Shown here: in pieces, positions 6,315-33,989 of the stretch
How positions within the stretch are numbered: position 1 is the first letter of the stretch
How the letters are laid out: each line of letters opens with the position of its first letter
DNA from: Podospora anserina
Lineage: Eukaryota
Assembly (NCBI GenBank): GCA_017654855.1
Contig: CM030334.1
Coordinates: 3,038,001 to 3,102,000 of the forward strand
Length of the DNA: 64,000 nucleotides
Reading direction: 5' to 3'
Program-made: the position numbers and the translations under genes
Notes under the pieces: model-generated
What the model was told of the DNA's origin: nothing
Databases searched by the model: none
The model's input: the letters and a program-made list of their open reading frames with translations, nothing else

Positions 6315-7164
6315 GGTGCATGTGCGCTCTTGAGTTTGCACAGTTGGTTGATGAACAGACTGGTAGATAGAGACAGAGCGATGATTGAATATGGGCAACT
6401 TTGTAATATAACCGTGGGCGGGATTTCGAGAAGACTTTTAGGAGAATGTGGTTGAAAGAGAGGGCATCAGATTCCCAACGAGAAGCCAAGCCAATAGCGG
6501 CTGAGCCTGCAGCCTCGCTCTGAGGGCAGGCGCTGTCTGCTCAGGTGGTTGCTCCTACCTAGTTTATTGACGTTCCGCCCGCAACTGCCATTAACTTCTG
6601 TAAATTCTCTATGAGGCAAGCACGGTAGAAGACCTTAAGCAGGAGCTACTCTCACTTCATCGATGTTACCTTCCAAGTTCGAAAGATACTTACAGGTAGG
6701 AGACGTGAATGCAATATCACCAGTCATGCCTAACACCATCGCCAGAGTGCCTTTCAATAGAAGCACTTCAAGTACAAATCGTTCTCCTCGGCCGATCTCA
6801 TTTGCTGCTGTGGAGGATGGACTCCCTCATAGCACATACTGGTATCTCAATCCGGAGGGAGATAACTCAGATTCACGCATCTCCATCACTCGGATCCGCC
6901 CTGGTAGATAACCATTGTTAGCATAATCCGTGCCCCCTTCTCTCTCTCCCCCTCACAAACACAGCATCTCAAAACACACGTAAACTCAAACTCCCATGGT
7001 ACACGCCTTCCTTCCCCATGCAGCTGGCACCCAGCGACCTGCCTCAAGAACGACTGGCGGTTGACAGTCAACAGACTATCCATGATCTACTACATGATGC
7101 CGAATATCTTCAAGACTCTATCCAACTGCAAAAAAAGAAAAAAAAGGTATAGTCCTGATCAAAA

Positions 7165-7283
7165 ACATACAACACCGGGGATTCCCCAGTGGTCACCCAC
7201 CTGAGTACTAGTCCAGCTGTGCGCAGCTTATCTAGGGGAGAGCGGACGGGATCCCGAGCTTTCTGCGCCATATGGTCGTATGT
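7165..7283 (-). rRNA. 5S rRNA gene (dispersed copy 1)
   Basis: The minus strand reads ACATACGACCATA...CCCGTCCGCTC...AGTACTCAGGTGGGTGACCACTGGGGAATCCCCGGTGTTGTATGT (119 nt), followed by a T-run Pol III terminator. The 5' and 3' ends pair. Confidence 0.95.
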
Positions 7284-7390: not shown

Positions 7391-8157
7391 TCACCCCCGC
7401 CTCTCCATCAAACCCCCAACCCTCTCCCTCCCACCCAACTCCCAATCATCCCAACACAACCCCAAAACAACCGTATCCCTCCCTTTCTCCCCCTCCTCCG
7501 CCCCCCTCGGCACCCCCCTCCCATTCCCAACCTTTGTCTCCCCCCTCAAAACCATATGCCACCTCATCACCCCCTCCCTCCTAAACCCCAACCTCTCAGC
7601 CGTCCTAACACTAGCTTCATTCATTGCGCTAGCCCTCCACTGCACCCTCCTCAACCCTATGCCCCCCTCTTCAGGCCCGTCAAGTGCGTAACGCAGCATC
7701 AACCCGACAGCATTAGTGGTAACATGTGTCCTCTGATACTGAGGTAAAATAACGATACATCCAATCTCAGTAGATAAATGCACAGGCGAGGTGTCCATGA
7801 AGGACATCATACCCGCTAGTTCGCCTTCTTCATCTTCCGGGGAGGGGGGCCGGGTTTTATCGATGACGGCAAAAGTGAAGTACCCTTGTTGAGGGAAGGA
7901 GGTTGTCTCGAGGAATTGGGTGATGAACTCGGACGTGGAGGTGTAGGGACCCAAGGGCATGTGGGCGTAGAGGGAGGGGTGCGTGATGATGTGGGATGTG
8001 AAGGTTGGGGCGTGGGTTGAGGCCTGGGATGGGGTCAGTGTAGGTTTGGTGAGCGGGAGTAAAAGAAAAGGGAGAGACCAACAGAGAAAGGGACCAGTTT
8101 CACCCTGTCGTTGGAGAGGGTGCGGATGGGGAAGCAGAAGTTGTGGGGTTGAGACAT
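7391..8157 (-). CDS. GNAT acetyltransferase, RimJ/RimL (Acetyltransf_3) family, 2 exons
   Basis: Motifs EIGCIVILPQYQRTHV, GLRRVQW, N.AS.R.AERLGF..EG..RW and RDT. Exon 1 is 8157-8083 (MSQPHNFCFP...), and the intron at 8082-8024 (GTTGGT...CTGAC...CAG) is phase 0. Confidence 0.9.
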
Positions 8158-9704
8158 GGCAATGGGGGGAATCGCTGTTGCTGTGGTGTGTTGAAGGTAT
8201 GGCTATGTAGAGAGGAGATAGTTGTAGAGTTCTGCGTGGCTGATCGTCAGATCATAAGGATGCAGCACCGAGGTGCCAACCCCTAGACAATTCCGGTGAG
8301 TGACTCACGGCTTATCTAGGAAGGCGTCATCAGCTCTCCCCAAGACAATCCGGGGGATGGCTATGGGAGAGCGATGCGCAAGGCTGAAAGGAAAAGTCCA
8401 ACCCTGTAAGCAGAATCAAGGCATTGTTCAGTAATCACGGTGCAAAGTGAAACTCAAAAGTGTAAAGAATGACCAACCAACTTCCGTTGCGTTGTCGTTG
8501 TTAAGTGCTAACTACTGAAGCTATCTACTTGAAGAGTAATATGCACCACGAAGGGTGAGAAGCCCAAAAAAAAAAACATGAAAAAAAACTAACTAATTGG
8601 GGGGTATCATCATATGCGCCTGCCTTATTCCTTCAAAACCAGCAAAGATAAAAACCAAAAACAGACTGATGGGGTATCTCAAAAACCATAAACCTACAAA
8701 CATACCAGAGACCAATAACAAATGTCTCAGATAATACAAGATCCCCATCTCAAGGTAATAAAAAAAAAACTCCAAGTGATGCTAGATGCCGATGATGATG
8801 ATGATGCAAGGCGCTGATGATGTCGTGTACTGCGAAGCTCTGTGTAAAAATGCCCCCGACAATAAAAAAAAACAAATCCCAAACTTTTTTGTGTTCCCGA
8901 AAATGCCCAAAGTAAATGCTCGCTCGCTTGGTGAACAAAAGAAAAAAGTATTATGTTTCGGATGGAAGCATAGGAGCTGATCCAAATCGAAACGCGGAAG
9001 AGAATGATGATAGCGAAAACGGGTAGTGGCCGATCGCTAATTAGAAGGATATTGGTTATGAAGAAGAAAAATTGTTGTGTGCCGGAATGCGGATGTCCAA
9101 AGTCCCCTCGGCGGGAACCCGTCCGCGCGATGCGATGGTGGTAGACAGAACCACAGGATGTTGTGTGTGTTTTGTGCGACGGGACCAAAGAGGGTTGGTG
9201 ATTGGTCGGCGGGAAGGAAATGTGTAAGTCCGGGTACACCTCGGGTGTTGGGTGTAGAGGGAAGGACGGGCCTCGGAAGAGACGGGTGGATTTCCCGACT
9301 CTGCCACACAAAAAAACCAAGAGCCCAAGACGGGCCGTTTTGTTTTGCCCTCCGACGAAATCCTACTCGGATGGAGTCTGACCGCCGAGGGCCCGCGAAA
9401 CGAGGGAAAAATCCTGCTGTTGCTGCCTCGGCAGAAGAGTCAAGCTCTTTGACCACGTTGCGTCACAAAATGATGGCGGTGACGATGAGATGTGAGTCAA
9501 AATCAGGAAGGGCTGTTATCCAAGGTTAGCGGGCTGTTCCGGCTTGTGTCGGGTAGCGCACTTTGATAAGGGAAAAAAAAAAAAGACTTACCGGTTAAAG
9601 GAGGTTGCAATGGGACCGTCGACACCCAATACCCCATATCCACCACCCACGCCTCGGCACTGGGTTGGTAAGGCAAAATGCCTTGCAGTGAAAGCGACCT
9701 CTCT

Positions 9705-12243: not shown

Positions 12244-12246
<3 letters not shown>

Positions 12247-15200: not shown

Positions 15201-18200
15201 GTTCAGCTCCTTCACCTCCGTGCCATGTTCGTCCAGTCTCCTCTCCCACCACCGTATCCGCCCTTCCGACCGACCGTTCAGCCAGGAACTCAGCCGTCCC
15301 AGCAATCACCCCACCCCCTATCCTATCCCTTGCCCTTGACCCTGACCCTGACCTGGTCCAACCAGAGAAACGGAATCCATGGTCAAGAAAACGGTGAACG
15401 GTCTCGGTGGACAAGGTGAACCGTGCAATGCCCACCCCATGTCCGACCATGCGGCCGGAAGCTGTCCCGGAAGCTTGCTCCGCTTGTCGGGTCTCTCAGT
15501 TGCCCTGTTTGGGACCTGTCAGGGCCTAACGGAGAATGGGATCAACACAAGATTGCAGGCAATTCATCCCGACCGACACCGAGACCGGCATTACCGGTAG
15601 CTTTTTTTTCTTGCTTTTGGGCATTGATGTCGTCGACATGTCACGCGGACACCGGCGACGACAACTCGCAATTTGAGTGTCGAGAAAGAGATAATTACTG
15701 CGAGGGGGTCATCACCACCACGAAGCGTGGGGAGGTCCCCTGAGAATTGCTTCTTGTCGCACGCATTCTCGAGGCACAGAGAAAACGGAATCCTATCCCT
15801 TGCTCCCCTCCCTATCGCCGCGGTGTGTCCAGCTTATCGGAAGGGGAAGCGCCCAGCCCGCACACACCGAGGATCTGGGAGAGTGGACCTTGTCCGGGGA
15901 ATTGAGGGTCGCTCGCGCGGGGGATTCGGGAACGCATGGGATTACAATTCCCTCATCCCTCCCATCCTCCAAATTTTCTCGCATCCCACTCCTTCCTTCC
16001 TTCTTTCTCACCTCGGTCGGGGAAGGTCGCCATTTCGCGCGACGTCGCGGGCAGGGGGGGCGGCGGCCTTCGGCGTGGGGGTGGGGGGTAGCTAGAGTTG
16101 ATAATCGGCTGGCCCAAGGGAACGGGAAAGAGAAGCAGGAAAAGGAAAGCGAAATGTTCCAAAACACCATCCCAGTCCACCAGTCCTGATAATCGATAAC
16201 CCCCACATGCATCATTCTGCGTGCTTTCGCATCTGCCTCAGGATGCCCAAAACGATGCTGCTGCCCGCTCCCACGCCTCTTGGCTTGTGAAAAGGGCCAG
16301 GAGCACCAAAACCACCGCGACCTTCCCGGTCCGGAAGCTCGGTAAGCATCGCAGCGTCGTCGCATGGGAGCGACTACTCTGGGTACGGAAAGTGTCAAAA
16401 AACTTCTCGAAGGCTGCATGGAAGGGTGGAGGTAATATCGGCCACCCGGGGACGGCTGTTTACACTCTTTCGGATGAATTTGGGCCCTAGGAGTTCTCCA
16501 CGATGCCTTGCACCTTGCAAAATCTACAACCGACGGTAAAAGGGCGCATCACATGCTTACTCCGGCGCCTCCGTCATCCTCAGACCTCAGTCAACAAGTA
16601 CCACCACCACGAGGATCAAAACGGCCGTCTCGCGTCGAGACACCCACTTCCCCAGAGTTTCACAGAACGGAGCCTAGGCTACTGGCAAAGGGACCTTTGG
16701 CCTATCCTCTCTAATCTGAGGCTGTGCGAGCATGTGTAAGACGGGACGGGGCGGTAATGTCGGTCGTGTGTCTTGCGGCTTGGATGCGGAGGTAGGTTGA
16801 AGAATGACTCAACCAACGTTCATATGTCAGCCAGGCGAATTCCTCATCACCAGACCCGGGAGCCTATACGACCTCGGGATCTGGACAGGAGCATCTGATA
16901 CGATGATGCCAACCACCAGTGTTTTCTCTTCGACATGGTGAAAGTCAAACAAAAACAGGGAAACCCGCCCATGACGCAGCTTTTGCCATTTGTTCTCCCC
17001 TTTCCCAAATGTTAAACCGAGCTTGTGTGGTCCAAGAAGTGTTGGCCCCGACGAGTTGTCAACCACACAGAACACAGATGCTCAATCTGGAAGTTTTGAC
17101 TGGATGAGGCGAAATGCCCAACTCAGCGCTCCTCGCTCCTGTCCCACCGTTGAACTGGCCCGCGATACCTATGGGGTCACAGCCTAAAATGGCTGTTGCT
17201 CCATTTCAGGCCCGACAAACCCACCCAGCCTAGATTCCCAAAAAGACACATTTTCCTCCAATGGATGGTGTAAGTGCAATTCTGGGCCCTCTCATTGGTG
17301 GTGGTGCGAGCGAGTTGGTACGGATTAGAAATGCAACGTTTCCCACCTACCCAAATCTGCAGGTTGCATCTTTTGCATTGCATATACAGCAAAAGCGAGG
17401 TACCTGCTGACCGTTGAATCGGGGCCTTTTCTCTTCGCCGGTGTCGATCCGCAGATCCGGCGATCGGTCGGTGGTGTTGGGGTTGTTAACCCCGACGGTT
17501 GATAGTCGGGCTGGTGCGGAGAGTTGTGGGGCAGTTATCGGTGCGGGGCCGACATGCGGGGCCGATGTGGACTCCGGTTTATTACACAAAGGACACATGG
17601 CGCTGGGATACGGCTGGGTCAGTTGACTCCGGGCTTGTCGGGGATGGTATTCCGAGTTGGTTCCGAGTGAGGTTGGAGTGTATCGGCGATATGTCCCACG
17701 AGGCAAACTGGCAACTGCGATTCAACTGGCAGCATTCCTCTCATCCAGGAGCAACATCGACTTTATCCCATACGTGGAACCATCTCAGCACTTCCAGAAG
17801 TAAAGCATACAGTCACTACCGGAACCATACAACATTGCTCCAGGAAACATCCCAAGTTTCATCTCACATCACCAACCCTCCTCAATCCCCTCCAAACCAC
17901 GTCCATTCAAGCAGACCAACTCCACATCTCCCTCTCTTGTACCCTCTACTTCTCCCCCCTCACATCGGAGAGATAACTAACCTTAGCTACAGCAGTCTAG
18001 CCAAAAATTCCAAGGGCGCCAATGCAAGAGATCAGATCAAACCGCGATCTCCATATGCCTGAACTCTCCTCACCTCCAATACCACCCTATCAACCCCAAT
18101 AAGAGCCCAGATCCGGGGATAAGCAAAGCTGTCACGTACAGCATCTCATACACTACCACCGTGATTCTCCTGCCTTGAGGAGGGGTAGATGTAGAACAAC

Positions 18201-20702
18201 TGCTATCTCACATTCAGGGGAGAACGTTGCTTTGGTGGTCGTTGCACATTGTGATATGATACACTTATCATCCTGGGACAAGCATTCTCCCTAAACCAAA
18301 CAAATCAGATATATCACACCTCCCAAGCTATATAACTTCCCGCGATGCCAAATTGTGATGGCGGCTATACGAGACACATAACTAAAGTGGGGCCAGGGAG
18401 GGTGGGCTTGCATGAGCGTTCAGTCATGTTATTTCATTCCTTTCCTATCATCCCTTATCCTCCAGTGTTCGCTTATTATAGTAAGTTGACTCACATTTTG
18501 TGACAAGCAAACATTATTTTCGCCGCCCGCTGGAAAATAAACAAGTAGGCATAACACGAGCTTTTTAACATTTGAGGGGGGGGAAGAAAGTGTGAGTTGT
18601 GACGGCGACAGCTTACAGGCCACAAGACAGCCAATCAGAGCTGGGGATCACTTACACGTTTTTGCTTGGCGGTGATTCGTTCGTTTTTTTGCAGGCTGCC
18701 CTTTCTTGCGATGACCCCCGCGCACACACGAAAACCTTTTGCAAATGAAAAATAGTTTACATGAGAGATATGTTTATGCCTTACCGAGCACCCCCCTTCT
18801 GGATCATGTGGAAATTCCCTCTTGTTCAGGAGCTTCTAGGCATCGGGATGTGTCGGTTTAAATGTACCGTTCCAAAGTGAGGGGTCAAAGGAGGGGGTGG
18901 GGGGGTGATAGAGAGAGAGGGAAGAAATCCCGCCGAGCACAACCCAACAACAACTGAGGGAGCAAAAGTTACACCCGCGCCACCCTCACACAAAATACCG
19001 CCGACTCGAAAAGCCAGCAAGGTAAGGCGAAGGGCCGAAGTGCGGAGGGGGGTTGTCTCTCAGGGTGTCTGGACCTAAAGAGGGGAAAACGAAACATCAA
19101 AATCTAGATTTTTGTCGTGCTTAGATCTAGGCGCGGCGGTTACGGGCGCGCGCGGGGTAGGGTAGGTTAGTGTAAAAGCACAAGCGGTGTGTTGTAAGTT
19201 CAACAATGGATGGGGATAGGTCCCCCCCCACCTCGCCTCATCTTTCCGATGCCTAGAATATCGTCAATGTCGATGTGGAAATGGGTAGGTACCAACGTTT
19301 CCAAGAAGATGGGGAACTACACAAAACGGTGAAGGGGGGGATTATTGGCAAATTAGGTTACCTGCCTTAAGAAGTCTCATCTTTAGTCTTTGATCGATCT
19401 ACCATTCCGATTCAGATTTTTCTCATCGGAAAGCGGGTAGGTACATTTGGCTTCTGGTGTGTACACAAGCCAATTTACAATTTCGTGGGGTTGGTCGGGG
19501 GTTGGGTGTACCGTGTGTTGTTGTGTGGTGCGACTTACACACACCTCTCACACTCTCCCTACCTACCCGCTGGCCCTATCCTATTCCTTGATGCCTTCCA
19601 GGTTCTTGCTGGCCTGTACCCCGCGTTTAGGTCTCGACACGCCGGCAGCAAAAGCACAGAATTGTCACACTCAACCTTCGCTCATTGGAATTTCCACAAA
19701 CGAGAGAAAGCTGGGGCAAGGTTTGCTCTTGGAAGGAGGGGCAGAAAGAGAGAAACGCACAACTGTGCCCAACTGATTGAAAGTGGAAAGCTTGATGAGC
19801 TGGCCCGGCATGGAAAAGCCCACACACACCAGAAACTTACCAAAAGGTCAGGTTTAAGGTAGGTCTCAAGGAGGTTGGGCGCTTTTTTTTTGAAGCTTCA
19901 TCAAGGCATGTCAATGAGGGAGAAATGTAATTCATCAATTAGACATTGCCAGCGAAGCTTTCTGAGGGGCAAGCATGGGGGGTAGCTTCCATCTTTGAGC
20001 AGAGCTGGAGATTACCAACCGATTTGATATTGGTCGTCGTCGTAGAAACCAGGCGTGGTGTGGGTTTGAGGGAGAAAGAAAACGGTGCTGCAATGTCATG
20101 TTGCCCCTCCATTTTGGGAATGCACGACTGCCCTATCTACCTATGCTGCGGGCCGGTGGACTTTGCTGCTGGAGTTTGAGAAAAAGGTGAGGATTGAGGC
20201 TGAGCAGGTATCGTGGTATTCGCTGTCGAAGGGTCTGGTGATACTCTCGCCATCTTGGCCGCTCGAGATATGTGCCCAAGCAAGGCAACCCACGGGCGCC
20301 TCGCCGAGCCACGCCACCGCGTGGTTTTTAGCATCTAGGCAGCATCTGACTGTGATAGTCTCAGTGGTATAGTAGTTCAATTTGCCTGAACAAATCAGAC
20401 TATATTTGGGAGGGATATCTGCTACAGAGCCCAAGGTGAATGACGAGTGATGTCATTGGGGACCTTGATGAAAACTAAACAATGGATAGTATCCAAATCT
20501 CCACCTCGAACATCTCCACCGCAACCACCACCAAACAGCATAAGACAAAGACTCACAGTCAGTAAATTATAAGCATCAGACTGAGGAAATAATAAGATAT
20601 GCCTCATTCAGGCATCAGGCAAATTGCAAGCTTCTTGTGGCCTGGTTTGGCGTGATACTCGAAGGTAAGAGGGGGCCGAAAGGTCATGGCAAAAACATCA
20701 AA

Positions 20703-20757
20703 ACATACAACACCGGGGATTCCCCAGTGGTCACCCACCTGCGTACTGATCCGGCGG
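20703..20757 (-). pseudogene. 5'-truncated 5S rRNA copy (3' ~55 nt only)
   Basis: Near-identical to the 3' halves of the 5S genes at 7165 and 27413 (plus strand acatacaacaccggggattccccagtggtcacccacctgcgtactgatccggcgg), with T-runs downstream. The 5' half (gagagcggacgggatcccg...tatggtcgtatgt) is absent. Confidence 0.9.
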
Positions 20758-21436
20758 CTATGTAACATGACTGCGAGGATGGGCAACTCCAAACAAGGTA
20801 TATTGTTTACTTCAAAATGTGGAAGAAAGCGTGCCGCTAAACGGTTTGTTAGTGGACAGGCTGGCCGTCGCAACCGTTACAGAGAATACAGACACACTCC
20901 CACCACAGTGTTAAAGCGGGTGGAGATGTGTTCAGATGGAAATGTGCGTTCAAATCGCGCCAGCAGCTCTCGCCCGGTTTATGATTGCATGCGGCCCGAC
21001 GCAATCCCGCAAAATCCCTTACTCAGCTTGCCGTGACTTGCCAGCCAGCATCAGTCACCTCTCTGTGCCTCCATCCATAATTTTATGTAGCACAACGGGT
21101 CGATCGGAGCCCGCAATTTAATTGTTTGAAGGCGTGATCGGAAAAGAGGAGAAGCAACTTCGGAGCCTTATGGCCACCCTATAGGAGCCTGAAATGCCAC
21201 TATGCCTCAGGCTGATATAGCGCCTTGGGACGAACCCTATCCAGAACCTCGTGAAAGAGATACATAGTTGAAGGTAACTTCTATATGCACCTCTTAAAAG
21301 CAGAAGATATGTCGGGGGTTATAGAACAACTGAGGGTTGCAGGTGGAGGTGGTGCATCTCGTGGAAAGTGGTGCACTAGCTTATCAGGCACGTGAAATAC
21401 TTCACAAACTACCTAAAATAAACCGAAAGAATGTTA

Positions 21437-22575
21437 CTTGATTAGTGCCGTCGATCCACAACTGTCCTGAGCCTTAATATCCGCTCCGTTGTCGATGAGG
21501 AGCCGCGCGATAGCCTCGTGGCCATACCGTAAGGCTAAAATCAGTGCCGTTGATCCATAATCATCCTGAGCCTCGATATCCGCTCAGTTATCGATGAGGA
21601 GCCGCGCGATAGCCTCGTGGCCATTCTCTGAAGCCAAAATCAGTGCCGTCGATCCAGAACTATCCTGAGCCTCAATATCCGCCCCGTTGTCGATGAGGAG
21701 CCGCGCGATAGCCTCGTGGCCATACCGTGAGGCCAAAATCAGTGCCGTTGATCCAGAATTGTTACGAGCCTTAATATCCGCTTCGTTATCGATGAGGAGC
21801 CGCGCGATAGCCTCGTGACCATACCGTAAGGCCAAAATCAGTGCCGTCGATCTAGAACTATCCTGAGCCTTAATATCCGCTCCGTTGTCGATGAGGAGCC
21901 GCGTGATAGCCTCGTGACCAAACTGTGAGGCCAAAATTAGTGCCGTCGATCCAGAACTATCCTGAGCCTCAATATCCGCCCCGTTGTCGATGAGGAGCCG
22001 CGCGATAGCCTCGTAGCCATACCGTAAGGCTAAAATCAGTGCCGTCGATCCAGAACTATCCTGAGCCTTAATATCCGCCCCGTTATCGATGAGGAGCCGC
22101 GCGATAGCCTCGTGGCTATACCGTAAGGCTAAAATCAGTGCCGTTGATCCAGAATTGTTACGAGCCTTAATATTCGCTTCGTTATCGATGAGGAGCCGCG
22201 CGATAGCCTCGTGGCCATACTGTGAGGCTAAAATTAGTGCCGTCGATCCAGAACTATCCTCAGCCTTAATATCCGCCCCGTTGTCGATGAGGAGCCGCGC
22301 GATAGCCTCGTGGCCATACCGTGAGGCCAAAATCAGTGCCGTTGATCCATAATAATCCTGAGCCTCGATATCCGCTCCGTTATCGATGAAAAGCCGCGCG
22401 ATACCCTCGCGGCCATTCTCTAGAGCCCAGTGAAGTGGCCTACATCCTCTCCCATCGACTTTGTCAGGGTCTGCCCCGTTGTCGATGAGAAGGCGCGCGA
22501 TAGCCTCGCGGCCATTCTCTAGAGCCCGGTGAAGTGGCCTATATCCTCTCCCATCGACTTTGTCAGGGTCTGCCC
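21437..22575 (-). repeat. Tandem array of highly conserved 99-bp ankyrin-coding repeats
   Basis: The unit tcgatgaggagccgcgcgatagcctcgtggcc...aaaatcagtgccgtcgatccag recurs every 99 bp. The array continues past the ORF stop at 21584-21586. Confidence 0.95.
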
Positions 22576-25518
22576 CTCCTTGAATTAATAATTTCACAAT
22601 GCTTAGCCTACCCTCCTGGGCAGCCCACGATAATGGCGTCCGGCCTTGGTAATCCCTCAAATCCTTTTTGTAGTTTAAACCTTCAGTAATATCGACGCCA
22701 TCGCAGACAATCGATGACAAGCCCAAAAGTGCGGCTATGGCATTTTTATGGCCGTTTGCTAACGCAGCGAAAAGCGGATGCTGGTACCTTTCCCCAGGAA
22801 CAGCGGTAGCCACTTCTCTTTTCATCTGTGTACGAATAAGGTTTCCCAAGCCTTTGTCTGCTAGAACATAAAGCGGAGTTGCATCCGAGCCATACCGCCG
22901 AGCTTTGAACTTCTCGAGGTGGTTGATCACCCTGATTCCATCCGGATTAAAGAATTGGGTCAAAAAACCGTCTTGCGGAACCACAGACGCCGCAGCATTG
23001 GCGTGGTAGAGGACCTGCTGACCGGCATACTCCAGGAACGAGCATTTCTCGGCCATGGCGTTCCGCTTGTCATCTGCGCCCTCTGGCGTGACGATGATCG
23101 CGCGTACTGTTGGATGATGCAGGTATGTAATGCAACAATGCTTGAGGATTTCGTGGCTAGGACCCTCCAAGTCGAATCCAAGTTCAGGCCACAAATCCTG
23201 AATGCCCTTTTCTTTCACCAAAAAGTCCCGCACTGATTCATGAATAAACTGCACGGTCTGTTGCTTAGATTTGGTGATCTCAGCAAGCCCCTTCGAGGAG
23301 CTCGTGACTAGTTTGACGGCATCCATGTGTGTGTCATCTGGCAACTCGGGATCGACAAGACGCCGCTCCAACAAGCCCGCCCATAATGCATGGCGGAACT
23401 CTGCTGGAGTCAAAGGCCGCTTTGCAAATAGAATCCAGAGAATGCAGAGCTGTAGCGATTCAGTTCTATTTTGATCGCGCGCCAGCATGCTCCTGAAGAG
23501 TTTGCTTAATTCGGCCGGGATTTCCAGAAGCTTCTTTCTGAGAGCGAGGGCGCCGTGACTACTCTCATTGTTTAGGATTTCCACTACCAACACGACCCAC
23601 ATGAAAACCCCAGCAGCTTTGTCCAGTATTTGGGATTGTAATTCTTCAAGAAGCGGGCGGTGCTCGATCCTTAGACGACTTTTGACGTATTGTGCCAAGT
23701 CTTCTTGGTGTCCTGATTCCTTCTCAAGGGTGAGCAAGATTCCCCGGCAAATATCAATGTACGGATATGGCCGACTCGAGAAACAGATTTGAAACCGAAT
23801 GCCTTCATCAGTGGCATTCTCTGCTAATTCTTCGAAGAACTGGACCATGTCCCGGACTTCCTGCTCGTCACACTCATCGAGGGCGTCGATGAAGCAGGTA
23901 AAGCAGCGCTGGCCAAGGGCCATGACAGCGTTGCTGAGAAGATCCTTCAGAGCGTTCAGGTCAGGGCAGTCTTGTTGGTTCCGTGGAACAATGTCCGTGT
24001 TGTCTAGGACGGATTGAAGGTCCGAAAACTCGTGCAGGAGCTGCGACAACAGAGATCGGTACATCCCGGAGATGGACCTTTCCAAATAGTCGCCTCGTGC
24101 ATTGAAGAAGAAGGATACCACGGCCACACTGGGTTTCTTGGGGCCTTTCTTCATTTCCAGGTACACGAACTTCATCATGGTTGACTTTCCGGCGCCTGCC
24201 TTGCCTCGCATCCATAAGAAGCCATGATGCTGTGATTGCTTCCTAGGGTCAAGCCAATCCTGATATTTTGAGTGCTGTAGAAGCCAACGGCAGGTTTTTG
24301 CATTTGCAGCCCGAATAGTGGTTCTGCGGGCATCGATTTGCGGAAATTCAAGGCATTTCAGCAAGCGTTGCCGCCGTTCCAAAGCAGAGTCGACTACTCA
24401 CATCCCCAGTCAGCATGATACTAGAGGAGAAGAGACGGGCCAGGGCAAGGGTCTGTATTACCGGCGGTATCGAGCTGGCTCACATCGATTATGGGAGTCC
24501 GATCAAGTGTCCTGGACGAAGGCGGAAGCCCTTCTAGCAGTTCCCTCGCGTATGCAGCTGCAGTTGCAGCAGAATAGTCTTGCCACTCCTTGTTCTTGTG
24601 GGAATCCGAATAGTCACAAATTCCACGAATCGGCAAGCACTGGAGGTTATCCATCATGCCGGCTGACTCCATTTCGAAGCACAGCGCCGAAAGTCGCTGA
24701 GCAATGTCATCCCGTACTTTCCCGTCCTTCATGACCCTGTTTCCCGAAGCGATGACTCCGTAGTGGATCCTGGGTTCGTCAGAGAGGCGTGCGCCTCGTG
24801 GTTGCAGCTTTGCTGGGTCGCAGTCAATACATGTTGGAGCCTCGAGAAGGTGGTTATAGGACGCTTGGAAGAGGCGATCGGGGTGGTTCGGGCGCAAGAT
24901 ATTCGGGAGTCGGCTTCGCAGGATCCTTGCCATCCGACTGCTGGAATGGTGCGGCCCATGCTTCGATCGTAGAGCGGACACAGCTGAGTTCAGTAGCCAC
25001 GAAGGTGTCTTCGCATCAGCCGTTTCTTGGAACGAGCCGCCTGCAATCACTTTGCCCATGTCATACTGCATGACCCTCGTGCCGACGACAACATCACCTA
25101 GGTAAAAGTCGGCCTGGCTAGGGGATCCGCCGCCAATGCCGACCATTAAGGTAGCGCGGATGCTTGGAAAACTCCGCTTCAGGTTTGTCGCGACGATTGC
25201 GGCGTTGTTCGTTCCATACTGTCCCGGCAAACATGTCATGACAACGTTGTGCTGGTCGATGCGTCCGAGCACGTAGATGTTGTCGTCGCCGGCTTGGTTG
25301 GGTGGCAGTGGGTGTTCCTCGTCCAGCATGGCACGCGATACCGCCAGTTCTAAGGGAAGTGCACAGATCCAGGCGATTGTGTAGTCTCCATGCACAAGTG
25401 GAGAGTACGCATCGTGGTTTGGGTAAATGCTGCCATTGGAGGATGTGTCGAAGATTCTTGGCCGTTTCGGAAGGCTCGCAGACGGTTCTTCATCTTGGTA
25501 CGTTCGTTTCGGAGTCAT
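21584..25518 (-). CDS. Fungal NLR-like protein: PNP_UDP_1 effector, NACHT NTPase and ankyrin repeats, 2 exons
   Basis: Exon 1 (25518-24462) has YTIAWICALPLELA, LMVGIGGG, IHYGVIASGN, LCFEMESAG and IRGICDYSDSHKNKEWQ (PNP_UDP_1). The intron at 24461-24394 (GTAATA...GCTGAC...TAG) joins in frame (TAVDSALERR). Exon 2 has Walker A GKAGAGKST, Walker B FIDALDEC, GVFMWVVLVV and FIHESVRDFL, then about 11 tandem ANK repeats. Confidence 0.95.
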
Positions 25519-27412
25519 GGCAGGGCGTTTGCATTACCGACAATCGTGGAAATCGGTCGAAACTATTCGTGGGTGGCAGATGCTGGAGCGAACGTCAGAC
25601 CTGCCAGCTTGGAGCAAAGTGTGAGGTGTTCACGATGGCGCAGGCGTGCAACTGAACATTTCGAAGGAGGCAGCCGAGCAGGTGAGTGGTGCCACGTGCG
25701 GCATCAGGCTCTGCAGGTACGCTTCCTTTCTAGACGTCGAATCACCTTTTTGGTGCCTCTTAGTTTCCCGCTACGCTACACACTAGGTTTCTGACGTTCT
25801 AGAAACCTACAACTTTATCTGTCTTACACTTGGGATTCCGAGATGTTGTGTTAATCTCCGAGGTACCGGCTACACAGGCCTACCTTGGTTCGCAGCCAGG
25901 TCAAGTCCGGTTTTCCCAATTTCCTCAAGGCTGCGTCTGTGCAACGCCCAATGAGCCATCCGCTCTCTGTCCAAGGGCCCTCCAGTTCGGTTGTGGTGGC
26001 ATCGTAGACTGAAATTGTCATGATTGGAGATGCCTACGAAGTGGAACAGCCTGAACTCAATCTTACCAACATGACTTCTCACAGCTCAGACGGCTGTGTG
26101 AATTTACTCAGGACTGCGTCACGCAAGTACTGTTGCATTCTCCCACCTTCAAATCTGCGAGCTGCAAATAGATTATCATGACGCTCAATGACACAAACAA
26201 CTAGACACCATGGCGCGAAGGCGGCGCTACTTCAGCCTCGCCTCCAGCCGCTAGCTACCAAGGCAGTGGGTTGACGGCACCACAAGCTAAAACCCAGCTC
26301 GAGGCAAAAGAAATACTATGAATATTAGGACGAGAAACAGCAGACGCTCAAGTTAACTGGGCCCTTTTATCGGCAGATTTTTATATCGACTCTTACCGCC
26401 GTTAGCAGTAAACGTGGTGTATCGTCCTATTAAGCTAATTAAATCACATAGTAACTTAAAGATATCCCAACGATAATAGATTATCTCTGCGAACCCCGTC
26501 GTTACTAGATTCTTTAATTCCCCATTAGGTTTCCTAATCCTTCTAAAATCTTAAACTATCATGTCTGCCCCTCCTCGGCGCTCTTACCGAGGGGCCGGTG
26601 GCTGGGTCTATGGACGGGGCTAACCTCTCTCGAGGAAGCCCGGGGTCAGGGGGAGCTTCCGGGGCCCATGATGCTTGCCCCCGGCTCGCCCGGTTTGCCT
26701 AATCCTTCCATAGCAATCGATCAACAGGTACGTGTGGTTCACGACACAAACAAACGTTCATTTCACCTCACCTCGTTCCACTCATCTTGTCAACGAGCGT
26801 TCCCTCGTCTCAAAGCTCAACGCCAAACGCAGAGTGTGATGTGCCTTAGGTTTGGACGGCGCCATGGAAACATCAAACAGGACATGGTTTAAAGCACACT
26901 CCACACTACGGTCCAGCCGACAACGGCAGAGTAACTCTGTAAAACCGTTGGGTTAGCCCCACAAATTCGACATGTTCTAAAAGCGACCGAGGAATTCATG
27001 CGAGCGGGGTTTTTGTTTTGATCCTAGGTTTCCCGTGCTCTATCTGGGACAGCTCAAGATGGGAACATGGCAACCATTTGTTATGCGTCACGCACTCCCG
27101 TCTGACATCTGGTTGGCAGGCTTGCGTCTGTCACAAAGAAGAAAGAAGACAAATGCTATTGCTGATACTTGATAGCAGCTTAGCTTCAGATATCACTTCG
27201 ACAAGGTAAACGCCCTATTAGTTCCCGACTTTCACAGCTGGTCTTGGGTGGCTGCCAGTTGGGTTCCCAGCTGCCGCTACTAAAAAATGAATATCAAAAC
27301 GCTTGCTAAGGCTTTTGGCGATGCATTCCATAGTAGACGAAAACTTCACCGCCACAACCCACAAAAACGGCCACCAAAATCAACCAAAAACAATGCGGTT
27401 TTGCGGATAAAA

Positions 27413-27531
27413 ACATACAACACCAGGGATTCCCCAGTGGTCACCCACCTGAGTACTGGTCTGGCGGTCAGCTGTTTGACTAGGGGAGAGCGGACGGGAT
27501 CCCGTATTTTCAGCTGCCTATGGTCGTATGT
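27413..27531 (-). rRNA. 5S rRNA gene (dispersed copy 2, different variant)
   Basis: 119-nt 5S sequence ACATACGACCATAGGCAGCTG...GAATCCCTGGTGTTGTATGT followed by a T-run terminator. Confidence 0.95.
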
Positions 27532-27995
27532 GAAAGAATGGAGTGGATAATGGGGTTGTATGTGCTGTTGGGAAGAAGAGATGGCGAGAGTTTCCCATGC
27601 CATTGCATGGGAAACAGAGAACGTTGACGAAGAGACGGAATGACGGCGAAGAACGGGCTGCATACTCTACAAGAAACGATCTACAAGACACAGCTGTCGA
27701 CATCAATGTGGCCTTTGAATCAGAGCCATCGCTGGTCCAGAATGTGGGTATCATCTTCTGGAAGAAGAGATGACGATATCTATGGCTTGATATGAGGTTG
27801 TGTCGGGCTGTAATCACAGAAGGTGCAATCGTGCAGTTCTTGCCATGTTGTTCGGAGTCAGTTGGCACCGGCTGTTGAGTGGTGCCAAACTCACTCCTCT
27901 TAGCTCTCATCCCACTTCTCACTCTCATCTCACCTCCCACTCAAGCGGCCTCGCCGAACAGCTCCTCGCTCACAAATCCTCACAACAAGCAAACC

Positions 27996-28780
27996 ATGTC
28001 CCATCAATACCGCAAACACTTCACCCCCCTCGAATCCCAACCCCTCCCTCTTCACCTCCCTAGCCCACACCCTCGGCCTCTCACCCGCCCTAGAGTTTCA
28101 CGATGTCCTCTCCCTCCACGACGCCGACCTCCTCTCTCTAACCCCACGTCCAGCCCACGCCCTCATCATAGTCTTCCCCACCTCCCCCAACTACGAAGCC
28201 GAACTCACCACCAAGGACAAGGATATCACCCAGTACACAAGCAGCGGTGACAACGAGCCAATAATCTGGTACAAACAAACCATCAACAACGCCTGCGGCC
28301 TCTACGCCATCCTCCACGCCGTCAGCAATGGCCACGCTCGAGACTTCATCAGTAAAAACCCCTTATCCCATCCCATCCCATGCTTACGACATGGCAGTTA
28401 ACCTAGAACCAGTTCCCAACTCACACCTCTATCAGCTCCTGACAACTTGCACACCCCTCAACCCACGAGACCGCGCCACTTTCTTAGGAAACGACACGAA
28501 CCTGGAAGCAGCGTACAAAACTGTCGCTCTACAGGGTGACTCGGCCGTCCCTGAGAATCCAGAGGATGAGGTCGACTTTCATTACGTGTGTTTTGTTAGG
28601 TCGCCCAAGAACGGGCATCTATACGAGCTGGACGGAGACAGGAAGGGGCCAATTAATCTAGGAGAGTTTGAAGAAGACGATCTCCTTTCTGAACGGGGAT
28701 TAAGAGTGCTAAAGGAGTTTATCGAGAAAACAGAGTGCGAAGGTGGAGTTAGCCTACTTGCGTTGGCTCCGGCGGAATAG
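27996..28780 (+). pseudogene. Ubiquitin C-terminal hydrolase (peptidase C12, UCH-L3/Yuh1 family) with a +1 frameshift
   Basis: ATG at 27996 gives MSHQYRKHFTPLES. An extra C in tccc (28036-28038) breaks the conserved PLESNP. The shifted frame gives LGLS.ALEFHDVLSL, PRPA.ALI.VFP and KQTINNACG (catalytic Cys). After an intron starting near 28352 come FHYVCFV (His) and LYELDG (Asp). Could be a sequencing error. Confidence 0.85.
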
Positions 28781-29028
28781 GTAGGCCAGATGGTGGCTAT
28801 GCATGATCAAAACTTCAGCCGCCATTGCTTGCACACTGAGCAGGTATAAAACAGACAACTGCATGCGTGTCATGACAAAATAAACCCATTTATAAAGGCG
28901 TAAATATCCCTCGGCATTCGGATAATACATGCCTCTTTTTGTATCTAAAAAGACCCCAGTTCCATAAAAGGGGCATATCCCTCCCATATATATCCATAAA
29001 ACCCCCATAAACGGTCACAATGATCCAA

Positions 29029-30915
29029 TTAAAACGTCTTCGACTTCCTCTTCCCCTCCCTCTCATAAGCGATAACCCCATTCGGCACATCCTCCAACGC
29101 CCTCGGCTTCTTCCACATAACCGACTTCATAGCTCCATACCACCCCAGCTCCTGCCTCTTCCACGCCTTAGGCTTCTCATGCCCATCCTCTGACCTCTGC
29201 AAAATAATTCGCGGTCTATTCCTGTTTCTCCCAGCAGCAGCAGGCAACACCTCCAACATAGCATCATCAATGTCCTCGTCCCAATCAGGCTCCATCGCCG
29301 CCGTCGCCAGAGCAGCACTCTCCGGCGGCAAGCCAATAGCTCTCTCCTCCATGTCATGATTCAAAACAAACACCACGCTCGGATCATGCGGCACTTGTGG
29401 TCTCTGCTGTTGCAAGCCCTGTCCGCCGCTGCTGCTACCACGTCCCTCCCCAGGATGATGTCTCCGCCAAGTAACAGTCCTATGCTCCTGAACTTCGACA
29501 TCCACAGTCCCATCACTCATGCCGCCTTCGCTGTCAGTGCTGAGTCGTCCAGGAACTCGTCCCGGAACAACCAGGTCGGGCGCAACCTCCACCCAGACTT
29601 CGGCCTTGCGGATAGTATCCGCATATATGATCAAGACCGACATGATGGAAAGAGGAACAGCAGCGGCCCAAAATATCCAAAACCTAGAACCAGAGGGGCC
29701 AAAAATTTCACCCATGGACAGAATTCCAGAGACGATGGGTAGGGGAATGAGAATACCACCCATATAGCTGATCCGGTCCAACGCTCGTCGATTCTCCTCC
29801 GCCGAAGGCCGATATGCAAGCGCCCTTCTCAACCGCGCAGCTCTCACCGCGGTGCTGGGTATGCCAAAGCGAGTAACCGCCTTCTCGCGCACCTCGTTCT
29901 TTGGCTGCTGAAGCACAGGCGGGGTTGTCAATAACGTAGCTGGTGTCGAAGCTGCCGATCTAGGTGACCCAGGTGATCTTCGGGAAGAGGGTGAGCCAGG
30001 TGAGCTAGGCAACATGGGAGCCGAAGCCGACTTGAGCGGAACAGGTCTCTTGATGGTGGGTAGAGACAAAAGCGAGATTCGCCGCTGTGCTCGGTCGAGA
30101 AGTCTTCTCCAGCATGGACTGTTGCCCTCCTCTTCGTTGAGCTCCAGAGATTGCAAGACCTGCCACCAAAACGCCATGGTATCGTCCGTGACGGGATGAG
30201 AAGGCGACTCCAAAAACTCAAACAGCTCCAACCATCTGTCGTATGCCAAATCAAGCAACAGCTCCCTCAGAGATTTGTGATGCGTTTCGCCACTCAGTGT
30301 GCTCAGAAGAGAAGCTTCAAAGCTCCCAGCCTCGTTGGTCTCACTGTAAGGGGAGGGACTAGGTGGATCGCGAAAAGAAGCGACAGGCGTCCTCCATGGT
30401 GCCTTGCGAACCTGCCAAGAGCGTCTCCAGACTGGATTGTCCAAGAGGAGCAGGTGTCTCTGATCAGAGATGCGTAGGGCCATGCGGCAGAAAACGGCAG
30501 AGGTCTTTCCGCTGCTCGATGGGAGAGTTCTGACAGGTGGAGGGTGCACTGTGTCGGTCTCGTCCCTGTCGAGGCGGAGAGGCCTGAGTCCCTGCATCAG
30601 CTCTGGATACTCGAGAATGCTCCATCGTCTTTCGCTGCTGGAGGCCTGCTGGTTGACGAGTCCGCTTCTAGCAAAGGGTCTGTACTCGCGTCTCGAGGCA
30701 AAGGATGCGAGAAAAGCAGAGTCGCTGCCGTTTAAAAGGAGGAGCACATCGGCGTACTTGGGGGACACGCCATGGAGGACAACTATGTCATGCCAATCCC
30801 CAGCCTCAAGCTCAGTGCTCTTTTGGAGGTGTTCGGCGAGGGACTTTGGCGTGGGTAGGGGGACGAGTTGACCTCGCCTAACGACGTAGGCTGGGTGGGA
30901 GTCGAAGTCGGCCAT
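29029..30915 (-). CDS. CorA-like membrane protein (fungal type, two C-terminal TM helices)
   Basis: 628-aa ORF. LDRISYMGGILIPLPIVSGILSMG..FGP.GSRFWIFWAAAVPL matches the CorA-like TM hairpin seen in many fungal proteins, but the canonical GMN motif is altered. Confidence 0.7.
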   Translation of the reverse strand: MADFDSHPAYVVRRGQLVPLPTPKSLAEHLQKSTELEAGDWHDIVVLHGVSPKYADVLLLLNGSDSAFLASFASRREYRPFARSGLVNQQASSSERRWSILEYPELMQGLRPLRLDRDETDTVHPPPVRTLPSSSGKTSAVFCRMALRISDQRHLLLLDNPVWRRSWQVRKAPWRTPVASFRDPPSPSPYSETNEAGSFEASLLSTLSGETHHKSLRELLLDLAYDRWLELFEFLESPSHPVTDDTMAFWWQVLQSLELNEEEGNSPCWRRLLDRAQRRISLLSLPTIKRPVPLKSASAPMLPSSPGSPSSRRSPGSPRSAASTPATLLTTPPVLQQPKNEVREKAVTRFGIPSTAVRAARLRRALAYRPSAEENRRALDRISYMGGILIPLPIVSGILSMGEIFGPSGSRFWIFWAAAVPLSIMSVLIIYADTIRKAEVWVEVAPDLVVPGRVPGRLSTDSEGGMSDGTVDVEVQEHRTVTWRRHHPGEGRGSSSGGQGLQQQRPQVPHDPSVVFVLNHDMEERAIGLPPESAALATAAMEPDWDEDIDDAMLEVLPAAAGRNRNRPRIILQRSEDGHEKPKAWKRQELGWYGAMKSVMWKKPRALEDVPNGVIAYEREGKRKSKTF

Positions 30916-31890
30916 ACTGTGTCTGGTGGAAAAGTGAAGTCAATCGATTTCGCACGTGAAATTCTACAGGGCCAGTCTTCCATGCTTTCTCTGCTCCTTC
31001 CGGGGAAGTAGGTTTCCAGGGGAGGAGATTCCTAAATGGGGCTCGGGCTCGGGTTCGGGGATAGATACGGGACCTGAATTCCGCGAAATGTCAAGGCCTT
31101 CACTGTCAGGAACAACTCGGGCACAAACAATTACATCAGTTGCCAAATTGAGAACCTCAATGGCAAAGTCCAAACCCTGACGCAAAATATCCAGAACCTT
31201 ACACAAACTGTCCAGAACCTCGAGCAGCGCATCGATCGCTTCGAGTAGGATATGCAGCCTGTCTGCGCGTTTTTGACGTCTATAAACGAATATCCATCCA
31301 AAGGCGTCTCGCTCCCAAACGTTCCCAAGGTGACTTCGTCGACGGCTGCAAGCGCGGGCCCTTCGAACTTCACAAAATATCTTTGCATGAGCGGGGGCTC
31401 TGGTTTATCGTTATTTCGTTTGGCGGCGCCGACACAACGTGCATAAATCTCCTTTCCCCTTTTAATAAAGTTTACAAACTTGTGGTGGAAGTTATCCGTC
31501 TTTTTTTTTATTCTGTTCTAACTACCTAGGGGGGAAGAACGAATCCAAAAACGAGTGAAATAAGAAAAAAAGATTCACAAAAGCAGGGTCCGGATGTGCA
31601 GGTTGGGCGGCTTGGGTTGTGAAGTGTTAAGACGACAGTCCAAAACTCATGACTCGCATTACAGTACCGGACAGCACAGGGCCCAGTATTGAGATGTCAG
31701 GCACATCCTCTGTTGACCTGCAATTTCCTCCATATGGGGCGTTACATCAGCTTTTCTCAAGTGGAAGGAAGGCAGTGGTAGCCCAAAGAAACAGGGTGCT
31801 GCTCTCCCTCTCCAACAGCCCAGCTGACTTCCATGAGCTGGCGCACTATGGACAGAAGAATGACAATGCAAAAGTCCAAAAGAACAGAAA

Positions 31891-32130
31891 CAGGCCTACC
31901 GATTACCTCAAGAGGTCTCTACGATAGTTTAAATGGCCTTCTAATTACATTCAAATGCCTCCTAACTATCTTTAAAGGCCTAGAACATATATTTTAACAC
32001 CTATTAAGTATCTTAGAAGCCCTCCTGATTATCTCAAGATACATACATATTAACTATCTTTAATGGCCTGGAAGATCTATTTAAGGCCTATTAATTATCC
32101 TGAAAGGCCTCAATTGTACTACTTTAGGCG
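31891..32130. repeat. Degenerate AT-rich ~21-bp tandem repeat (RIP-like)
   Basis: Units such as aggcctaccgattacctcaag, atgcctcctaactatctttaa, agccctcctgattatctcaag and aggcctattaattatcctgaa, with high TpA content. Confidence 0.7.
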
Positions 32131-32569
32131 TCTAATATCAGTCGCGAGGTGTTCAACATGGTCACGAGCCTTTGAATGATAGCGGAGATGTATGTAGACT
32201 ATGTTTGATGATGAATGGAAGGTATCACGGTGGCACCCAGAAAGCTGTGTGCGAAGATGATGAATTGAGAGGAAGCTATTGGTGAGAAGAGCTAATCTAT
32301 ATATGTATGCCTGTGTCAGTGCCCTTGCCAAATTGCTTCAACCTTGGAGGCCCTTTGTAAGCATGTTACATATCATATCCCCTGTACAACCCCTGATGAC
32401 AGCCCGTGTACTCTGTAGATTCAAGAAATCTCTCATTTCTCACCCCTTCTCCGCTTGTATTCCTCTTCAGTTATCCCATACCAGATAAAATTACCATCAG
32501 GAGGCCGGTGGTAATTGCCCTCCTTTATCTGTCTCATCTTCCGACGCTCCCTCTCTTCATGGTTGCCCA

Positions 32570-33507
32570 TTATATTCCTATCATACTCTTCCCCAGCCCC
32601 ATCCCTGGATCAGGCCTCAACCCAACTGCCGCTACTTCCCTTGCCTCAAGGGCACTGAGAAAGTCAACTGCGGTTTTGAGAGTAACCTTAATCACATTAT
32701 CGTTGAGCTTGGTGCCAAAGGTCAGGATCTTGTCTTGTGGGATAGCCTGGAAATCAATGGGTGCGCTCAAGTCTCCCTCCATCCCCGTCCGGACCAGAAA
32801 GACTGGCAGGCTGCCAATCTCTGCTGATGGCTGGTACCGACAACGAACAGGAACAACGATCAAGAGAAGAGCCTTAAACAGATGTTGGAGAACATAGCGC
32901 TGGGTTGGATTTTCCCTGGCGATAAATTCTCTGCAGCCTCTTTCGTTGCTCGTCTCGTATTGCCTCCGGACAATGGGTTCTGTGAGATAAAGTTTCGGAT
33001 AAGCCTCGATGGCAGCACAGAGGGCCTTGTTGAGTGAGATGAACTCGTCGATAGAATCTTGCGTGGGGTCGAGGTGGTCGCTCTCTGCATAGTGTGTGTG
33101 GCATGCATCTTTGAGGTAGAGAAATTTGCAAAGGAAGCACCGCCCTTCAATCTCGGTTCGATACAGTTTGAACCATCGGCGATAGATGTGATTGTGAAGA
33201 AAAGTATAGACCGGCCCCATACTTGCGGGCGCCGGCACAAAGTAGAGAGGGAACGACTTATTGTATATGTCTTCATATTGGTAGGAAACCAAACCTTTCA
33301 GGTCTGGCTGGGCGAGTCCTTCGGCTGATACGCCGAAGAGGCAGCGTTGGTAAATGTAGTGGTGATGGTCACTTTCTGCAGAGCAACGAGTGTTCAATTC
33401 TTAAAGTCTGGATCCTTCTCCTCCTTGGCAATTCGCTCCCAATACGAAAGACGAGGCTCAGTCTTGGTCCTGGGTTCGACGACTGTGGTCTGTTCAGAAG
33501 TAACCAT
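32570..33507 (-). pseudogene. Hypothetical protein, probably frameshifted near its 5' end
   Basis: The 275-codon protein-like ORF (32570-33397) has no nearby ATG and a TAA just upstream. ATG 33507 reads MVTSEQ...EKDPDFK and would join it if one base were added near 33398-33400. Confidence 0.55.
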
Positions 33508-33882: not shown

Positions 33883-33989
33883 TGGGAACTGTGAGGCTCG
33901 AACTCACGACCTCAGGATAGCTCTGGTGTTGCACATCCAGATCATACATTCGTATGAGACCTGCGCTCTTCCAACTGAGCCAAGCTCCC
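33883..33989 (-). tRNA. tRNA-Met(CAT), elongator type, with 34-nt intron
   Basis: Acceptor stem GGGAGCT/AGTTCCC-A, D arm GCTC-AGTTGGAA-GAGC, anticodon arm CAGGT-CTCATA[intron 33952-33919]A-TCCTG, T arm GTGAG-TTCGAGC-CTCAC. Length is 73+34 nt. Confidence 0.95.

Follow-up and report, generated by a model that had tools for sequence, protein, structure and literature searches.

A NOD-like receptor gene between a broken and an intact 5S rRNA gene of Podospora anserina: a possible scar of an ancient 5S-directed insertion

We consider a stretch of 64,000 nucleotides (nt) of the Podospora anserina genome (assembly GCA_017654855.1, contig CM030334.1, positions 3,038,001 to 3,102,000), called the window below, in which an island of about 6.7 kb carrying a gene of the NOD-like receptor (NLR) kind is bounded on one side by a broken 5S ribosomal RNA (rRNA) gene and on the other side by an intact one. 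As judged from protein similarities, the NLR is not inherited like its neighbours, showing a non-vertical similarity pattern, and the locus is fixed in the sampled strains and no longer mobile. We propose, tentatively, that the island is plausibly the scar of an ancient insertion directed to 5S, the vehicle of which is gone. It is noted that the insertion itself, its tie to the 5S repeats and its vehicle are what we infer, the link to 5S being put forward as a conjecture.

The three 5S copies around the locus, named A, B and C, are as follows.

7164..7283, minus strand: copy A, intact 5S gene (Rfam RF00001, 91.4 bits)
20697..20757, minus strand: copy B, 5S fragment consisting of 5S positions 65-120 (20702-20757) and the terminator T-run (Rfam and BLAST)
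27412..27531, minus strand: copy C, intact 5S rRNA gene (Rfam RF00001, 90.8 bits, full model 1-120)

All three are co-oriented, and the window holds no further 5S pieces. Copies A and C are above the RF00001 gathering threshold across the whole model and copy B is below it, the targeted Rfam scan of its region giving a sub-threshold 5S match at 20702-20770 on the minus strand, with 25 bits versus a gathering score of 38 and with an E-value of 0.012 in the 901-nt search or 0.82 over the whole window. When the window is compared with itself by BLAST, 20697-20757 matches 27407-27467 with 91.8% identity over 61 nt (E 1.5e-17) and copy B matches 7162-7217, in copy A, with 92.9% identity over 56 nt. 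Copy B is thus a direct repeat, of 56-61 nt, of the 3' half of copy C, running exactly to the 5S 3' end, with a spacing of 6710 nt between the two. In the 62 nt where the 5' half of copy B would be expected, 10-22 of the 62 positions match in any register, and because this is the chance level the 5' half is truly absent; the homology ends near 20757 with the 5' half missing, just as the initial annotation of the stretch described, the BLAST match covering positions 65-120 only. A 5'-half homology suggested by a register match in MAFFT was rejected, being at chance level. The DNA past the terminator T-run is unrelated among copies A, B and C, and an origin of the layout by tandem duplication was rejected, the DNA behind C and that behind B having no similarity. 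Copy B, a truncated 5S, is unable to fold into a 5S RNA. It retains the compensatory G70/C107 pair found in copy A and has 2 private changes, from which it follows that its source was a 5S of functional type and that its age is not very great. With three loci in 20.4 kb versus 0.05 expected from 87 loci in 36 Mb (PMC2441463), the density of 5S is about 60 times the expectation, and it should be noted that the window was picked for its 5S layout, so that the clustering alone is weak evidence.

Between copies B and C there is a single gene, lying on the same strand as the 5S copies, with copy C upstream of it and read towards it. Its parts are as follows.

21584..25518, minus strand: NLR coding sequence, intact, predicted 1288 aa (Pfam and sequence)
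25518-24462, minus strand: exon 1, with PNP_UDP_1 (splice model)
24461-24394, minus strand: intron of 68 nt, GT..AG, with a CTGAC branch-like site (sequence)
24393-21584, minus strand: exon 2 including the stop, with NACHT and ankyrin repeats (ANK) (splice model)
21441..22631, minus strand: ankyrin array of high internal conservation, about 12 repeats of 33 aa, 99 bp each (self-comparison)
21437..21583, minus strand: 49 in-frame ankyrin codons behind the stop (Ank_4, E 4e-12)

The gene model joins two open frames, 24421-25533 (PNP_UDP_1) and 21584-24397 (NPHP3_N/NACHT and about ten ankyrin matches), and the reading ...SQLDTA-V-D... across the splice agrees with that of the annotated relatives, ...SQLDTAVDHALERRQ.... 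In Pfam, the N-terminal effector domain PNP_UDP_1 is matched with E 7.8e-14 (52.1 bits versus a cut-off of 25.1), the NTPase domain is matched by NPHP3_N with E 4.8e-33 and by the NACHT model with E 4e-4, which is under the Pfam cut-off, and Ank_2 is matched with E 2.7e-130. A 300-nt reference stretch repeats every 99 nt in the ankyrin array, the in-array copies being 82-92% identical, where the conservation is judged by DNA identity and not by the T-REKS Psim used in PMC13449251. One in-frame TGA (21584-21586) ends the NLR within its ankyrin array; the relatives have lengths from 1238 to 1365 aa. By its domains, its effector and its repeats, the gene is a fungal PNP_UDP-NACHT-ANK NLR with high internal repeat conservation, and the earlier description of about 6.7 kb with one PNP_UDP_1-NACHT-ANK gene followed by a full co-oriented 5S holds in the spacing and in the Pfam and Rfam matches. 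From what is known of these domain families, the near-identical ankyrin repeats would act as a variable sensor, the NACHT NTPase as a switch that oligomerises, and the N-terminal phosphorylase-like domain as a cell-death effector.

The proteins nearest to the NLR are those of the species complex of P. anserina, with that of P. comata at 95% identity; P. pseudopauciseta QC763_308560 and P. bellae-mahoneyi QC761_308560 are both within the P. comata 90% cluster, and P. pseudoanserina QC764_308560 is the orthologue of another sibling species. From the tag number shared by these relatives, rather than from the Pa_3_8560 sequence, the gene is probably Pa_3_8560 of Podospora anserina or its orthologue. 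The excerpted account of Pa_3_8560 in PMC13449251 describes a PNP-UDP NLR with ANK repeats of high internal conservation and a Tajima's D peak without introgression. The present gene resembles the NLRs of this high-conservation class in its PNP-UDP N-terminus, its NACHT domain, its conserved ANK repeats and the 308560 tags in the siblings, and that excerpt makes no mention of adjoining 5S genes or of very close relatives in other families.

The divergence of the NLR can be compared with that of two flanking genes of the same window, ATE1 and GNAT. The identities to the window are given below, a gene without a figure being one for which no homologue was retrieved; Cladorrhinum samala and Cercophora samala, both of which names occur in the sources, are taken as one species (Cl. 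samala).

T. verruculosa: NACHT 91.4%, PNP exon 94.0%, ATE1 84.1%, GNAT 70.2%
Lasiosphaeria hispida (L. hispida): NACHT 90.9%, PNP exon 89.5%, GNAT 63.0%
Dichotomopilus funicola (D. funicola): NACHT 89.8%, PNP exon 93.2%
Chaetomidium leptoderma (C. leptoderma): NACHT 89.3%, PNP exon 88.1%, ATE1 69.3%
Gaeumannomyces hyphopodioides (G. hyphopodioides): NACHT 83.1%, PNP exon 85.2%, ATE1 57.6%
Cl. samala: NACHT 78.3%, PNP exon 74.9%, ATE1 89.8%, GNAT 75.1%

It is seen that proteins of three other Sordariales families reach about 89-94% identity to the NLR and one of Magnaporthales (Gaeumannomyces) reaches 83-85%, whereas the flanking genes have only about 58-69% identity to those of the distant taxa, and that a single 90%-identity protein cluster takes in three families. 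The closest outgroup by ATE1 is Cl. samala (89.8%), yet its NLR is only 78.3% identical. Within the complex, by contrast, the NACHT part of the NLR is 91.5-95.7% identical versus 97.1% for ATE1, that is, the NLR is the more diverged. Since, compared with a housekeeping gene, the NLR has changed more quickly among close species and far more slowly among distant ones, steady-rate vertical descent does not predict the pattern. In the tree, the complex (support 100) stands beside T. verruculosa, L. hispida and Chaetomiaceae, with very short branches and separated from the rest of Podosporaceae; a constraint that keeps Podosporaceae as one clade is worse by 30 log-likelihood units and gives p 0.036 in the approximately unbiased test, for a group that was named after seeing the tree.

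The positions of the genes in other species point in the same direction. In T. verruculosa, GNAT and ATE1 are on one contig of 351,111 nt and the NLR relative is on a contig of 11,642 nt, and in Cl. samala, GNAT and ATE1 share a contig of 1,199,529 nt, apart from the NLR relative on a contig of 126,226 nt. The NLR and ATE1 are on differently sized contigs in all seven outgroup species with both proteins listed, and in P. pseudopauciseta the two contig sizes are equal (4,159,175 nt). Though indirect, being based on contig sizes only, this suggests a long-standing neighbourhood of the flanks, with the NLR as a newcomer at the site in the complex.

The geometry of the island is consistent with an arrival directed to 5S, in that 2 of the 8 possible layouts of a whole plus a half 5S fit such an integration. 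Based on our proposal, copy B would represent the 3' half of the target 5S, now displaced, and copy C would be the 5' half of the target joined to a 5S 3' half that was brought by the incoming DNA. Two candidate routes can be envisaged. In the first one, the end of the element would carry a 5S 3' half, and the element would integrate within that half and restore the gene, in the way of tRNA-gene islands. In the other one, a classical Starship would split the 5S, and a later deletion between the 5' half of the target and a co-oriented internal 5S would remove the side of the captain, the recombinase gene of such an element.

For the first route there is a familiar counterpart outside fungi. Bacterial and archaeal integrase islands at tRNA genes carry a copy of the 3' part of the gene and so restore the target. 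Like these islands, the present one has an intact target at one end, a direct repeat of the 3' part at the other end and co-directional cargo between them; unlike them, it has no integrase gene inside or beside the intact 5S, its host is a eukaryote and its target is 5S. We know of no fungal element of this target-restoring kind, and among the papers listed by the literature searches none describes a cargo insertion in fungi by which a 5S is restored.

More evidence on the link to 5S comes from metagenome contigs with the NLR. The scan of these contigs gave 9 loci, among which only L002 and L003 have the whole N-terminal part and upstream DNA, L001, L004 and L007 being too short for context. 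At L003, which has 88.7% DNA identity to the window over 1721 nt of the gene, the NLR is preceded, at a distance of about 0.6-0.7 kb, by a 5S-derived sequence of the same strand (3152-3280). This sequence has a score of 29.1 bits and a 35-nt exact match to copy C. In its 5' half it is well conserved and has compensatory changes in helices; near position 60 about 12 nt are inserted, and the likeness of the 3' half is only about 70%. The chance of such a 5S neighbour is estimated roughly at 0.2-1% per locus, from the 87 loci in 36 Mb (PMC2441463), to be read with the fact that it is one case of two and was found after the fact.

Several features of these metagenome contigs are also recorded. The L003 gene is a mosaic, with 88.7% identity to the window in PNP and early NACHT and 75.6% in the repeats, and at 5725-7634 a sequence of 1.9 kb replaces 0.5 kb of the window, with the reading frame broken into five pieces. 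Isolated NLR fragments with 81-87% DNA identity, lying amid unrelated genes at 10000-10416 of L005, 3345-3885 of L006 and 117-207 of L008, look like decayed copies; there is no 5S in these three at E up to 0.1. No recombinase was found in the 41 Pfam-scanned open frames, taken from 166 (at least 110 aa) in L002, L003, L005 and L006.

In public sequencing runs there is a sign that the junction at copy B has a counterpart elsewhere. A 147-nt contig, 20700-20846, spans the junction with no difference from the window in two runs, and its depth is about twice that of its neighbours (238 versus 141-143 in one run and 114 versus 54-62 in the other), where depth is read as copy number solely for this contig and tentatively. 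In addition, a contig joining 20846 to 20954 and skipping the 107 nt of 20847-20953 is present in 4 of 4 runs, with another contig running straight through. Because of the nearly double depth in two strains and the join in four, the B junction is probably present twice, that is, a second copy of the 5S 3' half with its adjoining DNA probably lies elsewhere in those genomes.

A number of observations weigh against the proposal of a 5S-directed insertion, and they are taken together here with the other explanations on which they bear. To begin with the strains, the query used for searching the public runs consisted of 47% left flank and 52% island, so that an empty site is expected at a word share of about 0.47. 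The island is present in 20 of 20 runs listed (6 studies, one species label), with word shares of 0.73-0.95, and thus none of the 20 is near the share expected for an empty site. When the contigs of four runs from four studies were mapped on 14001-34000, the pieces covered both flanks and most of the island in each, and in none of the four did a contig join across the island. The empty site looked for in conspecific strains, as the initial annotation had proposed, was thus found neither in the 20 listed runs nor in the four mapped ones. NLR orthologues are present in at least five species of the complex, and fixation of the NLR across related species, which that annotation had named as grounds against its reading, is partly observed, with 308560 orthologues in three siblings and the 95% match in P. 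comata.

These data bear most directly on the explanation that the island is a present-day cassette, gained or lost as the two 5S direct repeats undergo homologous recombination, as the initial annotation had also suggested. The direct repeats of 56-61 nt, which are 92% identical, would offer a substrate for such recombination. However, with no run showing the deletion share, no joining contig in the four mapped runs and the orthologues across the complex, this explanation is largely refuted at the sampled depth, and we regard it as very improbable.

A second group of points concerns machinery. Pfam was run on three sets of open frames: outside 18-29.1 kb, 137 frames with a length of 112 aa or more; in 18.0-21.6 and 25.5-29.1 kb, 109 frames with 40 aa or more; and in 8.3-18 kb, 58 frames with 58-111 aa. 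These 304 frames of the 64 kb contain no DUF3435 or other tyrosine recombinase, no transposase, no integrase and no reverse transcriptase, which agrees with the earlier remark that no recombinase frame is visible and carries out the check by hidden Markov model that accompanied it; an earlier Pfam scan of 29 window frames likewise gave no DUF3435. The scanned frames have no match to DUF3723, Ferric_reduct or Patatin, either. Neither terminal inverted repeats nor short target duplications are found at the island, the sole inverted pair spanning it being of 16 nt.

These absences also limit the explanation by a strict Starship, in which an element driven by DUF3435 entered the 5S at 64/65 and later lost its captain and nearly all of its cargo. 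For this explanation, 23% of the curated Starship sites are in 5S, at no fewer than 5 internal positions (PMC11162782), and NLRs are among the conserved Starship genes (PMC9156397). The extracted rows of PMC11162782 moreover place PNP_UDP_1 genes inside Starships of Fusarium oxysporum and Ilyonectria (table S7) and give captain-type recombinases in P. anserina (2) and P. comata (4) (table S8). However, the window frames hold no captain or captain relic, the island has 6.7 kb versus published sizes of at least 27 kb, a whole 5S stands where only a 5' half would be expected, and an extra deletion between 5S copies is needed. Under the published rule, a degraded Starship without DUF3435 has at least three of DUF3723, ferric reductase, patatin-like phospholipase and NLR (PMC9156397). 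Because the island has 1 of these 4 accessory classes, namely the NLR, with three being the minimum, it does not qualify under that rule, and the definitions of PMC9156397 exclude the island from the Starships, from the Starship-like elements and from the degraded Starships. Starship insertions in 5S split the gene and are flanked by repeats of 6-16 bp (PMC11162782), unlike the only flanking repeat at the island, which is the 5S 3' half of 56-61 nt. We consider the decayed strict Starship to be improbable.

The last group of points concerns the 5S copies and the relatives. In P. anserina there are 87 5S loci, of which 72 are full length and 15 partial (PMC2441463), and because 15 of the 87 are not full length, lone half copies are common. 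Among the metagenome relatives, L002 has no 5S in 3.4 kb upstream, so that a 5S beside a close NLR homologue, for which the initial annotation had proposed to look, is seen at L003 with its upstream 5S-like sequence and not at L002; at L003, in turn, the 6 kb downstream of the NLR are free of any 5S 3' half. The DNA common to the relatives and the window is the gene only, starting about 200 nt upstream of the ATG and reaching to the repeats, and the spacers beside the 5S copies share no DNA with L002 or L003. In the window, no 5S fragment lies downstream of the HET-domain gene that is next to copy A (see below), within the 3.8 kb left there. Part of the similarity pattern of the NLR could also be imitated by ancient paralogues that are strongly constrained, and the suggestion that the NLR is a newcomer is, as said above, an indirect one.

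A further explanation is coincidence, in which copy B would be an ordinary truncated 5S pseudogene, produced by an unrelated deletion or by another, lost insertion, in a 5S-rich region, and the NLR would be independent of it. Such truncated pseudogenes are known from filamentous ascomycetes (PMC5555474, PMC2441463): beyond the 15 partial loci of P. anserina, pseudogenes are 18-83% of the 5S of filamentous fungi according to Rooney and Ward 2005, as cited in the portion of PMC5555474 used here, and copy B resembles them in being truncated and unable to fold. Coincidence needs no unknown mechanism, and it accords with the lack of any mobile-element feature, the fixation of the locus, the L002 locus without 5S and the picking of the window for its layout. 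On the other hand, it requires three things to concur by accident, namely a geometry that fits, a 5S-like sequence located upstream of the L003 gene and the second B junction, and it leaves the acquired look of the NLR unexplained. Unlike the usual truncated pseudogene, copy B is a direct repeat around a gene with the look of an acquired one, and there seems to be a further copy of its junction elsewhere in the genome. We take coincidence to be a serious possibility, though one that we hold with some doubt. The claim of the initial annotation that the NLR arrived by a 5S-anchored insertion, which we retain in tentative form, thus draws on the layout, the acquired look of the NLR and the 5S of L003, and it is weakened by the missing recombinase and the missing empty site.

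A bolder version of the proposal, which we think improbable, is by analogy with tRNA-gene islands that a small NLR cassette without captain uses the 5S 3' half as its attachment site and rebuilds the 5S on entry, having moved among Sordariales families and into Magnaporthales. If that is true, the second B junction and the mosaic 5S before the L003 relative would be further landing scars.

It is useful to compare the island with the 5S-targeting Starships as far as they are covered by the published extracts (Voyager of Macrophomina, PMC9156397; Osiris of Aspergillus fumigatus, PMC12153272; survey, PMC11162782). In common with them, the island shows local enrichment of 5S, one 5S broken internally, adjoining DNA with an NLR, and an NLR family with signs of horizontal movement. 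It differs from them in having no DUF3435 captain, a repeat of 56-61 nt rather than 6-16 bp, a whole 5S at the other end, a size of 6.7 kb, one gene, and fixation in the sampled strains. The nearest published picture is a locus on chromosome 3 of A. fumigatus, described in the extract of PMC12153272 as a Starship hotspot with 6-8 intact 5S copies and fragmented 5S copies.

All parts of the island are of known kinds, and the NLR gene itself is probably already catalogued. What may be new is the presence of very close NLR relatives in other families and in another order, and the possible tie to 5S landing sites. A horizontally acquired NLR at a 5S landing pad, if our proposal is true, would bear on how the NLR repertoires of fungi turn over in spite of the genome defences against duplicates, by connecting the gain of an NLR with integration directed to 5S. 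Should the link to 5S not hold, the locus is an ordinary fixed NLR beside a common 5S pseudogene, and the cross-family similarity still needs explaining.

The spacers of the island and the nearest flanking genes are as follows.

20758..21440, no strand: spacer between the NLR and copy B, with no domain match (Pfam)
26300..26560, no strand: AT-rich patch resembling the product of repeat-induced point mutation (RIP), lying in the 1.9 kb that separate copy C from the NLR start (composition)
7394..8251, minus strand: GNAT acetyltransferase, left-hand synteny marker (Pfam)
27904..28777, plus strand: ubiquitin C-terminal hydrolase (Peptidase_C12), two open frames, core gene (Pfam)

The RIP-like patch, of 261 nt, has a GC content of 0.375, a TpA/ApT ratio of 1.24 and a (CpA+TpG)/(ApC+GpT) ratio of 0.60; 14-nt direct repeats at 26530 and 26695 flank it, and the contigs of four strains end near its edges (about 26259-26284 and 26572-26590). 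It is probably a small decayed repeat. No RIP signature is present in the rest of the island or in the rest of the window, and RIP was rejected as the shaper of the island, its signature being confined to the patch; of the TpA-rich degenerate DNA reported earlier, therefore, the patch is real and the rest of the island lacks the signature. On the other side of the gene, across about 655-695 nt of 20817-21513, the four strains share the same 15-19 differences and 2 gaps relative to the window, and the flank contigs of 6.4-6.7 kb from the same strains have only 1-12 differences; the strain of the window carries a divergent haplotype 3' of the NLR. Copy C is 372 nt from the open frame of the hydrolase and is read in the opposite direction, and this core gene is the right-hand limit of any island.

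Just downstream of copy A and on the same strand there is a HET-domain gene, 3791-5719 (minus strand, E 1.9e-29), which is of a cell-death type and has a possible N-terminal exon at 5736-6437. The about 10 kb of 10400-20700 have no Pfam match in any frame, with open frames that look non-coding, a GC content of 0.52 and no RIP signature, and they are unusually empty for the P. anserina genome. A tRNA gene with a 36-nt intron at 33883-33989 (minus strand) makes, with the three 5S loci, four co-oriented RNA polymerase III genes in 27 kb. At 38970-42792 (minus strand), a frame like a ubiquitin-conjugating enzyme lies immediately before one of 1047 aa that has a PARP catalytic domain, and the two may be one gene.

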